From Narcine bancroftii (lineage: Eukaryota): 64,000 bases of DNA. The stretch covers positions 97,402,001 through 97,466,000 of the forward strand of contig NC_091478.1 of assembly GCF_036971445.1 (NCBI RefSeq), in the 5' to 3' direction. The number at the start of each line of letters is the position of its first letter. Within the stretch, counting starts at the first letter, position 1. The position numbers and the translations under genes were made by a program. The notes under the pieces are model-generated. The model made no database searches. It was not told the origin of the DNA and saw only the letters and a list, made by a program, of their open reading frames with translations. Shown piece by piece: positions 18,919 to 40,149 of this stretch.

Positions 18919-19685
18919 TAGTAGTGTCTCCACATACACATGCACACTCTATACCAGGGGTGTCAAACTCAAATTCACAGAGGGCCAAAATTAAAAACTT
19001 GGACTAAGTCGAGGGCCGAACTAAATATTTATTGAAAATTTTCAACAACATCTGCATGTTTTCTCTTCTTTCAACATATGTAATGTTAAACTTTTTCTTA
19101 TTAAAATAAATGTTTAATAATAGTTTTGGATAAACTCTTTCCAGAAGCATTAACAAATGAGAAATAAAATATTCAATAAATAATATTTCTCTATAGAGGA
19201 TTTGTCAAAAGTTACTAGTGTGCTGTCGAATAGTAAAATCTGAGGGCTATTGAGAATGTGGGAGAATAACATGATTCCTGAAACAATCAAATGGGTGACT
19301 GATTGTGGGCATGAACTCTTGCAGGGTTATTTGCCATGCCCTTTTTCCATTGGTACAGATATCCTTTGATTTACACACTTTTCAAGTTTATGCCTAATGA
19401 GCTTGTATCCAGATGCAGGACCATTTTTAACCAGGAATATATTTATCACTGTGACATGAAACTATTGGAAGATTGTTTTATTCTGAGATTAAAGTTCATA
19501 ATACTTACTCAGGCCTGTGTGCGGGAGGGCGGGGTTTGCGGGCGATCGGGTTGGACAACGACAGTGCGGGGGCATCGGCTCTCGCTGCAGGGCGGCATCT
19601 CGGCGGATCAGCGGCCCCGTCACCATAAGTCGTGGGTCGGCCTGCGGCAGGGAGGGGGAGTGGGCAATGGTCCTGGCGAGGTCAG

Positions 19686-20070
19686 GCCCCCCCTGAGTTT
19701 CTGCCGGACCCCCCTTGACCTGCTGAGTTTCTCCTGGACCCCCTTTGACCTGCTGAGTTTCTGCCCGACCCCCCTTGACCTGCTGAGTTTCTCCCAGACC
19801 CCCCTTGACCTGCTGAGTTTCTCCCGGACCCCCCTTGACCTGCTGAGTTTCTCCCGGACCTCCCTTGACCTGCTGAGTTTCTCCCGGACCCCCCTTGACC
19901 TGCTGAGTTTCTCCTGAACCCCCCTTGACCTGCTGAGTTTCTCCCGGACCCCTCCCCCTTGACCTGCTGAGTTTCTCTCGGACCCCCCTTTGACCTGCTG
20001 AGTTTCTCCCGGACCTCCCTTGACCTGCTGAGTTTCTCCCGGACCCCCTTTGACCTGCTGAGTTTCTCCC
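19686..20070. repeat. 30-bp minisatellite, 13 copies
   Basis: Unit ccccttgacctgctgagtttctcccggacc; ctgagtttct occurs 13 times. Confidence 0.97.
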
Positions 20071-20295
20071 TTCTGGTGTTTTTACGAGAACCACAGACTT
20101 TCGCTCATACATTGATGAGGGGGATCAAGGGCCAAACATTGTCAGGTACCTCTCTGCTGGATAAAGGATACGGTTTAACCCGCCGAGTTTCTCCAGTGTT
20201 GGGTTTTCACGAGGTAGAGTCAAAGGGCCGAAGGGCCTGTTTCTGATCTGTAATGTTCTACGGACCCTGCTCTTCTTTCCATGCCGGTGTCCCAG

Positions 20296-20361
20296 GACCT
20301 TTCCTGGGCAGTCTCCGCGCTCAGGACCGCGCTGGGATCCCGGTCAGTGGTGGAGGAGCAG
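20296..20361 (+). other. Exon-like 66-nt segment inside the hAT cargo (DLSWAVSALRTALGSRSVVEEQ)
   Basis: Pyrimidine-rich acceptor ctgctcttctttccatgccggtgtcccag, donor cag/gtgagt, phase 0-0 and open frame. Confidence 0.35.
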
Positions 20362-22344
20362 GTGAGTGCAGCTAATCCTGATCCAGCCCACACCACTCCT
20401 GAGATTGGCGGGGGGGGGTTCCACCCTACCTGCCCGACCAGCCTCGCTCTCCACGTGTACTCCGGGCACCCGCCGTTGGTCCGGTGGGAAGACGCAGGGT
20501 GGCCGGCGCCCCCATCGCCTGGCGGGGAACCCCAATCTTCCCTCTGGCGTCCCGACTCCATCTGCAGCTCCAAGAAACGCTGTGCCACTGGGGTTCCGGG
20601 CGCTGGGAAGCGGCCTTGGCTTCCCCTGACACCGGCCAGGCCGTGCTGCGGTGGGGGGGTGGGCGGGGGGACTTGACAGCGTGTTTATAAAACCACCCAC
20701 CACTACTTTTCAAGGACCAGGATTTTTCTCTCTCTCTCTCTCACCCTGGGAAACAACGGTTACTGTGCATGCGCTATACTGGCACGGCGGCCAGCGGGCC
20801 ACCTCTAATACATTTTTGATTTGATCTTGCGGGCCAAATATAATTATATCTGGCCCGCGGGCCAGAGTTTGACATGTGTGCTCTATACACAGCACCTAGT
20901 AAACACACGTACTGTATATACATACAGGTGGATTTTAAAAATAACATGTATATAAACATGTTGGAATTTACACAGATACTTCATATCTTGCAGTTTATTT
21001 TGCAGTGTCTTTTGACTTATACATCAAAAGAGGAAGGTATAATTTAAAATTTTGCATATGGTCTGTTGAATTTGTAATGGAGATATACAGAATCAGAATG
21101 ATTTTGTTAAGTATTGTTTATCTTGCAAGTAATTCTTCCATTGTTATCAGCAAAACAGATTTCATTTCTACAGTGTCTTTCAAGTTGTTCCAAATCATCT
21201 CCAAACTAATAAAGTGCATTTCACTCAAAATGACTTGTGTAATATAAGAAATGGAATAGTTAGTCTCAGTCATGGTTAATCTGTGCAGAAGTGTTACAAA
21301 ATTCAAGATTCTTTATTGTCATCTACTAATGCATAATATGTAGTAATCCACAAAGAATCACAGTGCCAATCGGATGTAGATCAAAGGGGGTAGCTCAGTA
21401 TTGTGCATGACAACTCAACACCTTGTTGGCCTGAACTACATTTTGCCTTTTCAACAAGAAGCAGCTCTGTGTTGGCTGGTTGGGATCCATGATGATCTAT
21501 TTGGCTTTGAACTCCATGGATCTCAGTCATGGAGTGGTGTTGGCTGAGGCAGTAAAGAACTGAGTGAGGTCTGCACTCTGGCCAATGACTCAGGTTTATG
21601 CCCCATTCTGAACACTGAAGCAAGCTGACTCAAAGGAGTCAGCCAAAGATAATAGCCCAAATATGGAAATTCCCTCAGAACAGCCCTGGCAGAGTTAAAT
21701 TAGTTTACTCTCTCATGGTCCAAGATGCAGTGGAAAGCTTAGTTCAGGTATGGCAAAACAATAAACAATGACCACTCTTTGGCACCATTTTGGATTCAAA
21801 AATTCCCAGAAAACCAGATGGTAAAGTAGAGTAATGTGGTTAATCTTGAGAAACCAAAAACTTGAGCAAACAGCAAGGAGCTGGTGCAAGACTCAGTGGG
21901 TCTGGCAGCGTCTGTGGGGCTAAATGGCCAATTAAGTTTCAGGTCGGGACCTTTTATGGTGATTAAACCTGACAAGGGTCAAACTGAGATTCGAGCATTG
22001 TGACATAAGGGAACAATCAGATTCAGTTCCTGTGGCCACCTGCTATTCCAGGAGCTACTTGGTCCTCAGAATATGGATGGGAATCAGGCACAAAGAGTCA
22101 TTCCGTGCCGTCAGCCACTGTCTTGGGATGAATAATGTCTGTGTCCACCATTATTGTCGTGGATCTGGGAACTACGAGAGTAGCAATCACACTCTCCCTG
22201 GATATGCCACAATGACAGAGTGAGTTGGATTTATAAGCTCAAATCATTAGTGCTTGGCTTGAATCTGAGATTGTCTTGCTCAGACTAAGCTCTTGTACTG
22301 CAGATCAGGATTATGCAGAGTTTGCAGATGTCACTGCTGTCAGA

Positions 22345-39010: not shown

Positions 39011-40149
39011 AACGTTCTGCTGAAACTCAGCAGGACATACAGCATCTACAGTAAGTAAAAAGCAACCAATGTTTGGGGCCTGAGCCCTCGAGGCCTGAAT
39101 AAATAGGTGGGGGTGGCAAGGATGAGAGGAGAGGGGGGAAGGGGAAGAGCATGGGCTAACAGGTAAGAGACAAACAGGAAAGTCTGCAGATGCTGTGAAA
39201 AGTCAGCATGTTTAGACACCACTTTCCAAACACATGATTCCTACCAGTTTTTGGGACAAGGGAGTTAAAAAGCATGGAGACACCACCAACTGGAAGCTGT
39301 CCTCTAAGCCACACACCACACTGACTTGGAAATAAATTGCCATTCTTTCACCGTTGCTGGGTAAATGTTCTGGAACTCACTCCCCAACAACACCTACACC
39401 TCAAGAATTGCAGTGGTTCAAGAAGGAAGCTCCCCACTACCTTCTCAAGGGCAGAAAGGTATGGGCAAACCTAACATTCCTTGGATGGTCAAGGAAAAGG
39501 AGGGCCATGAAGGGAACTGCACGACTGGTGGGAATGACTAGACTCACCTCCGGAGCAATCAAGCATTGCACAACTCCTACACCATCAGGAAGGCCAAGTA
39601 CATTGAACATATTCCCTCATCCTCCACATGTTACTCTGCATCACCTCAGTTATTTAGACTCTCCAGAGAAAATTTCTGCAAATCAAGCCTCCCTAAACCC
39701 TATAGCTGATCAGACAGAAGCTCTGAAAACCTTTCCTTTCTCATTTCTATGCCACACACCAGATGACATCTCCTTGGTCGACACAAGGAATTGACTTCTC
39801 ATTGTCACCGACTTCCCCACTCACCTTTGCCCTCATTCCCAATTGGATGGTTATCTCATTTAATGCATCATTTACTGGTGGGGAATATTCTCTAGTCAAT
39901 GAGAAGGAGGGCTATGAAGAGGACTGCACAACTGGTGGAAAAGACCAGCAGTCTTTGGGAAAGCAGCACTGACATTCAGATTTAATTTGATGATCAAGGT
40001 GACTGTACAATCTTTCACGTAAAGGAGATTTGGGAAAACTCAGACCAAGCCCCATTTACCCACAGTCTTCTACACCTCTCAGTTAAACAAAAACCTTAAC
40101 TTTAAAAAGCTCATTTGTTTTCAAATTTCCTACCCCTCTAAGAAAATCT

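Follow-up and report, generated by a model that had tools for sequence, protein, structure and literature searches.

The window is a stretch of 64,000 nucleotides from Narcine bancroftii (contig NC_091478.1, positions 97,402,001 to 97,466,000, forward strand), with positions counted from its first letter. It holds at 18955–20880 a hAT element of 1,926 bp with a mosaic cargo. Identical 8-bp target site duplications (TSDs) bound the element at 18947–18954 (left) and 20881–20888 (right), and 12 of the first 16 bases agree between its two ends compared as inverted repeats. The copy lies on the minus strand, the left arm being the hAT 3′ arm and the right arm the 5′ arm. Transposase was not found in the window: tblastn with the transposase of the coding partner described below, against the whole length, gave no match at E ≤ 1. 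The perfect TSD, the hAT ends and the missing transposase noted in an initial annotation of the sequence thus stand. The element is well supported as a young, non-autonomous Charlie-type hAT and a multicopy Pack-TIR (TIR, terminal inverted repeat) of the hAT type. Capture of chromosomal DNA followed by mobilisation is very probable.

Structure of the element and its family

The 3′ arm (18955–19196, minus strand, 242 bp) includes the TIR, and is 93–95% identical to the 3′ end of transposase-coding copies, the match ending at position 242. Internal sequence of 1,563 bp follows (19197–20759), within the Pack-TIR range of 100–5,000 bp. It begins with block S1, an AT-rich stretch plus a GC-rich unit, which is present in all cargo forms. 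The AT-rich part (19197–19508) is absent from the transposase-coding partner, its junction with the arm recurs at 2,885 places, and it ends in a predicted consensus splice donor (19503–19508, minus strand). The GC-rich unit is split. Its first part (19509–19689) is common to all forms and duplicated in tandem in a 1,240-bp form; the rest (20592–20679) is cut off by block X, and in the short and 1,240-bp forms is joined to the first part through a stretch of 9 bp.

Block X (19690–20591, plus strand), a single captured stretch, takes the place of those 9 bp with 902 bp in the long form, to which the copy in the window belongs. Its junction recurs at 945 places, and its donor is traced to chromosome-scale contig C5 (G000:C5), ending at 192,434,896. 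All its parts are on the plus strand: 12.4 copies of a 30-bp minisatellite (19693–20070), the last units of a 46-kb array at the donor; one or more repeat ends that we take to be Penelope-type (20049–20213); a tail that we take to be the 3′ tail of a CR1-type long interspersed nuclear element (LINE; 20217–20262); and a 66-nt exon-like unit with acceptor and donor sites (20296–20361), both intact in 37 of 45 long copies. Block Y (20680–20759) is an 80-bp sequence with a CT repeat, found in the long form only, and joins the S1 unit to the 5′ arm. The 5′ arm (20760–20880, minus strand) consists of a GGGCC-rich subterminal array and the TIR; in most transposase-coding copies the 5′ end is 92–95% identical to it. 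An AT-rich left arm and a GGGCC-rich right arm had been described and are confirmed, with altered limits: the left arm ends at 19196, the right one starts at 20760 instead of about 20710, and 20680–20759, formerly read as right arm, is cargo.

Composition changes from block to block, as had been described. GC content is 28% at 18955–19200, 36% with a single CpG at 19200–19510, 72% with a CpG observed-to-expected ratio of 0.81 at 19510–19692 (the shift near 19510 is sharp), and 66% with a ratio of 0.61 at 20270–20720. Outside the element the window has a ratio of 0.26–0.31. The minisatellite period is 30.

The family is large. Junction patterns counted across the genome give 945 long-form copies and 2,885 copies with S1, against 0 matches for the reversed controls. 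First-look searches returned 258 candidates for the left 556 bases and 1,217 for the GC block; in each case all 40 that were scored are near-full matches. Complete copies number 77, from 90 loci minus 4 duplicates and loci without an end in the fetched flank. Their TSDs are perfect in 56 of 77, have at most one mismatch in 66, and comprise 65 distinct ones; they are centred on TA (T at position 4 in 65 of 66, A at position 5 in 63 of 66). Hundreds of family copies have TSDs of their own, so the arrangement is not due to chance. The same cargo in many copies with different 8-bp TSDs agrees with the earlier proposal that chromosomal DNA was captured and moved as a unit. The last 8 bases of the 3′ arm (19189–19196) match the target preference of the family itself. 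A second insertion is present at the site of the 3′-arm end in three fetched loci (L206, L248, L249), two of them being same-family copies.

A cargo confined to this one site would speak for an ordinary miniature inverted-repeat transposable element with later, single-site insertions. Single copies do gain such inserts, for example an L1-like one in locus L256 and fillers in a truncated copy of a sister family. That explanation is refuted by the GC block, which lies in the same element at 30 of 30 loci fetched, and by the junction common to 945 copies; its probability is negligible.

Three forms are distinguished among the 77 complete copies: long (45; 1.4–2.0 kb, with 3–19 minisatellite unit cores), short (29; about 1.0 kb), and the 1,240-bp form with the doubled S1 GC-rich unit (3). 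Copies diverge from the consensus by 1.3–1.5% in the first 730 columns. For long-form copies the difference is 8.2% at CpG positions and 1.6% at other positions. Derived arm letters are common to the cargo forms and absent from both partner forms; one progenitor is therefore indicated.

At the site itself, a paralogous empty site matches weakly across the junction (71%). The host gene of this copy was not identified; a candidate exon of 22 codons with strong splice sites, unnamed, lies at 39825–39890 on the minus strand. The window also contains a 74-bp GT-rich minisatellite at 34316–34839.

Block X and its donor on C5

The donor was sought with a pattern made of the end of block X followed by anything except element sequence. 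Two places in the genome match, one truncated copy (L213) and G000:C5:192,434,872 (L214). At the latter the four parts of block X, from minisatellite to exon-like unit, are ordered as in the element, and beyond the junction the sequence carries on. The unique part of the donor agrees with the long consensus at 507 positions with 9 mismatches (98.3%) and with the copy in the window at 95.4%, as in a Pack-TIR parent locus (at least 90%, not linked to the TIR element). The 435 bases beyond the junction have a single match in the genome. A single-copy donor that extends past the cargo end and lacks TIRs, as capture would predict, is thus found.

Minisatellite, Penelope-type end, CR1-type tail and exon-like unit had been listed as separate blocks. 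All four are present; they are one capture, not several, because a single TIR-less donor holds them in the same order. The two retroelement scraps were thus at the donor already. Outside element copies, dispersed relatives occur in 1.35 Mb: 23 of the Penelope-type end and 24 of the CR1-type tail, several of the latter directly behind reading frames that resemble the end of a LINE reverse transcriptase. Rfam detected no ribozyme in the copy in the window, and no family came near its gathering score.

Block X derives from the right edge of a minisatellite array of 46,112 bp with 1,338 unit cores. The array (G000:C5:192,388,218–192,434,330) is GC-rich, with about 1,340 units of 28–35 bp, 380 unit types and higher-order repeats. 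Its core matches the Penelope-type repeat end, and such ends flank it on both sides in opposite orientation.

The direction of transfer could in principle be the reverse: the C5 locus would be a decayed copy in which the minisatellite grew to 46 kb and the arms were lost, X having come from elsewhere. Truncated copies such as L213 exist, and minisatellite length varies between copies. Against this, neither arm nor S1 is present in the array or in the 21 kb to its right, among the matches listed for the long query and among all matches for the short form and both partners; the further 40 kb to the left of that searched stretch likewise holds none (86 kb leftward in all). Unique GC-rich sequence goes on past the junction, and most of the 380 unit types are missing from element copies. 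The donor retains 39 of 39 consensus CpGs, while the 45 long copies retain 84% on average and none more than 95%. This fits an unmethylated donor and methylated copies that are losing their CpGs. Transfer from the element to C5 is very improbable.

Uptake through RNA, in which block X would be a reverse-transcribed piece of a donor transcript inserted by LINE or Penelope machinery, is improbable as well, if slightly less so. The retroelement ends within block X and its start inside a tandem array could suggest it. The scraps are internal to X and already at the donor, however, and the insertion has neither poly(A) nor TSD, replaced 9 bp of the recipient, and kept intron-like sequence on both sides of the exon-like unit. 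The missing TSD and poly(A) and the retained intron-like flanks fit copying at the DNA level.

A GC-rich genic source had been proposed. The donor is CpG-rich; it is the edge of a giant minisatellite, its genic nature is not established, and a promoter-like CpG island with downstream exons starts 12 kb to the right. Exons 34–44 kb to the right resemble what we take to be a PA-domain RING ligase; PDB, Pfam and Atlas gave them no name. At least two homeobox genes lie on the minus strand 35–42 kb to the left of the array (L243:6726–8741, L242:7994–8095).

Transposase-coding partner and the remaining cargo

A search for the Spin-doc zinc finger found 14 longer copies that share both ends with the element, and 9 of these have a perfect TSD. 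The partner element measures 2.4–3.6 kb, and one copy has a stop-to-stop frame of 641 residues with the domains PF18658 (Spin-doc zinc finger) and DUF4371. The frame is 72–79% identical to its best full-length relatives, which are named "GTF2IRD2-like"; of 7,985 candidates scored against it, 1,016 are relatives at E ≤ 1e-30. Proteins with that name have been shown to include Charlie-like hAT transposases (PMC10641963). On the grounds of the same ends and similarly low divergence, the partner transposase likely mobilises the element in trans. A search with PF05699 (50 loci) gave two other hAT families and not the partner. A related Charlie-type hAT family of about 2.65 kb has other terminal repeats and TA-centred TSDs (L121–L129). 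On G000:C23 at 26–55 Mb and on small contigs, the zinc finger of the hAT has dozens of clustered matches with identical scores, which suggests a copy within a larger repeat, segmental or tandem. On G000:C17 near 75.48 Mb (L141–L145), five strong matches to the Spin-doc zinc finger form a cluster that is likely one domesticated multi-finger gene.

Partner and element have only consensus positions 1–242 and 1752–1881 in common, equal to 18955–19196 and 20760–20880 of the window; 19197–20759 is therefore foreign to the partner and constitutes cargo. The opposite possibility, a plain internal-deletion derivative whose inside is the non-coding interior of the autonomous hAT, would have been favoured by a cargo matching that interior. 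Consensus 243–1751 has no match in the 14 coding copies and 50 loci fetched, beyond short ones to dispersed repeats. Block X moreover has a host donor, and true deletion derivatives of about 740 bp, also present, are unlike the cargo element. On the other side, one partner form has its own GC-rich insert at the same arm position, and another form than those among the 14 coding copies examined could contain S1 or Y. This possibility is given a small probability, the largest among the competing explanations.

That GC-rich insert, of 750 bp, occurs at the same position of the 5′ arm in 11 of the 14 coding copies (L171:1745–4925 and ten similar loci). It holds a 22-bp minisatellite, and part of it resembles what is presumably a LINE. 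A shorter derivative of 850–950 bp with part of the insert is itself repeated (L324–L327).

The traced part of the cargo is 902 of 1,563 bp, block X only. For S1, the left-junction pattern gave 22 matches, all of them element copies, and a further 55, of which 12 were fetched and none is a donor; the right junction gave 4 matches, all element copies. For Y, two pattern searches gave 2 and 5 matches, all element copies. By their design, junction-pattern searches may let a donor escape, here as well as in the sister family, and such results are not proof of absence.

In most copies the AT-rich block has a near-open frame of 108 codons after an acceptor-like site. It gave no match in Pfam, among solved structures, in a 5.8-billion set (190–2000 residues) or in a 1.84-billion set. 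A captured coding exon in this block was rejected: with six frames to read, three stops in 108 codons are compatible with chance, and no protein matches. Coding homology of the cargo was accordingly not found for the S1 frame, and the 22-codon exon-like unit is too short to search.

A sister family of 1,172 bp (L226:620–1720, L264–L274) has arms identical to the short form and keeps 24 bp of the S1 unit. Its cargo is about 910 bp of other sequence with a GC-rich exon-like unit of its own. First-look candidates number 2,425 (40 scored, 90–100% identity); 12 loci include 10 complete copies with 10 distinct TSDs, 9 of them perfect. A donor pattern gave 133 matches, and none is a donor among the 100 listed; one odd row is a truncated copy with fillers.

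Mechanism, host transcript and relation to known systems

The following course is proposed. The genome contains a hAT that shares both ends with the element and has an open frame of 641 residues. A derivative of this hAT would have lost the coding region and gained S1. A member of the S1 lineage then took about 0.9 kb matching the right edge of the C5 minisatellite, presumably as one DNA-level copy that replaced 9 bp of the GC-rich unit and brought in minisatellite units, two old retroelement scraps and the exon-like unit. Uptake likely proceeded by template switching, either in gap repair or at a stalled fork, which the data do not distinguish; a fork could plausibly stall at the array edge, where there is a long G run. 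The long form has since inserted at roughly 945 sites, with new TSDs. Copies would become methylated and lose CpGs and the donor would not. The cargo is most likely a passenger, because movement needs only the arms. A sense-oriented copy in an intron may lend its acceptor to a host transcript, as in the one case below. Taken as a whole, with a host origin of the untraced blocks and uptake at the DNA level included, the account is probable, with somewhat less assurance than capture and mobilisation as such.

For that case, contigs of three runs taken by guess to be RNA, and of one DNA run, were compared with the donor. Run X6 has two contigs with 25 foreign letters directly 5′ of the carried acceptor. 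These letters have one genomic match, the end of an exon, after which comes a canonical donor site. On the same strand, 32,067 bp downstream of that exon, lies a long-form copy (C5:70.22 Mb) that has a perfect TSD of its own and an intact acceptor, and another 26 kb on is the first coding exon of a G-protein gamma-2-like (GNG2-like) gene (E 9.5e-13). The simplest reading of this single observation is that the carried unit is included in the GNG2-like gene's 5′ untranslated region (UTR). The short joint contig does not itself show which copy gave the exon. At the donor, contigs of the three likely-RNA runs show no splice joint, with sparse cover past the junction. Less than 1 kb separates the GNG2-like exon from an interstitial telomere-type repeat upstream of it (L229:2388–3025, G000:C5 near 70,254,300). 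Frames in the GNG2-like intron (L234:7105–9447) resemble an element that we take to be of retroviral type.

The initial annotation had also suggested that the element spreads CpG-rich and splice-competent sequence. The cargo is indeed copied widely; its copies lose CpGs, and the CpG-rich state is likely transient. Splice competence has one supporting case, the carried acceptor joined to the GNG2-like exon in one likely-RNA run. Elements like this one thus likely distribute exons that are ready for use, on a scale rarely described for animal elements of this type.

Several points weigh against the proposed course. The arms are 3–7% off each of the two partner consensuses, and the cargo forms have derived arm letters in common that match neither partner form; neither can thus be named as the exact mobilising master. 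Arm letters settle only in part in which order the short, the 1,240-bp and the long form arose: an ancestral letter is kept by the long form and lost in the others, and some variants cut across forms. Host origin of S1 and Y is argued only from their absence from the partner. With the right junction of block X blunt and the left one in a C run, microhomology does not point to one mechanism. Beside the donor there is no parent element, the nearest relative being a sister-family copy 21 kb away. The GNG2-like joint is seen in two contigs of one likely-RNA run, and on the acceptor side only, among the contig loose ends listed (83 more are unlisted).

Tan et al. (2021, PMC8277862) surveyed 100 animal genomes and recorded 370 Pack-TIRs, of which 208 are hAT and only 4 multicopy, the example having 3 copies. 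In that one survey TIR capture in animals consists mostly of single-copy repair scars, and multicopy cases are rare and tiny. Pack-hAT-N8_XT of the western clawed frog (PMC8277862) is like the present element in its hAT ends, a TIR-less parent on another chromosome, distinct TSDs, GC-rich cargo and chimeric transcripts with host genes. The present element differs from the cases of that survey in several respects: it has about 945 copies, its mosaic cargo goes back to two or more uptake events, its coding partner is found in the same genome, and a sister family carries other cargo; its cargo is not shown to come from a gene. The filter of the survey asked for a unique top hit and an annotated flanking transposable element (PMC8277862). 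It would likely miss high-copy families, and the gap in copy number may be partly one of detection.

Plant Pack-TYPE elements (Pack-MULE, Pack-CACTA, Pack-hAT; Gisby and Catoni 2022, PMC8903248) are defined by captured coding DNA. They are likewise non-autonomous TIR elements with stepwise chromosomal uptake that can lend exons to host transcripts, and differ in that no coding homology was found for the cargo here. Bat Helitrons with captured promoters and first exons reach thousands of copies (Thomas et al. 2014, PMC4224331). As here, they are vertebrate elements in which host 5′-type sequence was captured sequentially and amplified; unlike here, they are rolling-circle elements without TIRs or 8-bp TSDs, and their pieces map to named genes. 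Charlie-like hATs (PMC10641963) have the 8-bp TA-centred TSD and the GTF2IRD2-like transposase in common with the present family. No named family is assigned to it, and a consensus name may already exist. No published report of a vertebrate Pack-hAT of this scale was found in a search that was thin on subscription papers. Animal Pack-TIRs are already known; the new part is the scale, hundreds-fold above the published vertebrate example, and the serial capture.

A wider reading, tentative and rather doubtful, is of a serial capture-and-amplify lineage like Pack-MULEs or bat Helitrons, in which masters would swap GC-rich, exon-bearing host pieces, GC-rich cargo would aid spread, and exons would be spliced into many host genes. 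It would draw on three or more cargo families with copies in the thousands, a transposase-coding form that has cargo too, and the one GNG2-like 5′ UTR case. With a donor, a coding partner, intermediate forms and about 945 young copies in one genome, the order of capture, the decay of CpGs and the rate of exon uptake become measurable. The family also suggests that high-copy animal Pack elements lie concealed in the usual consensus sequences of non-autonomous hATs, the interiors of which are seldom traced.

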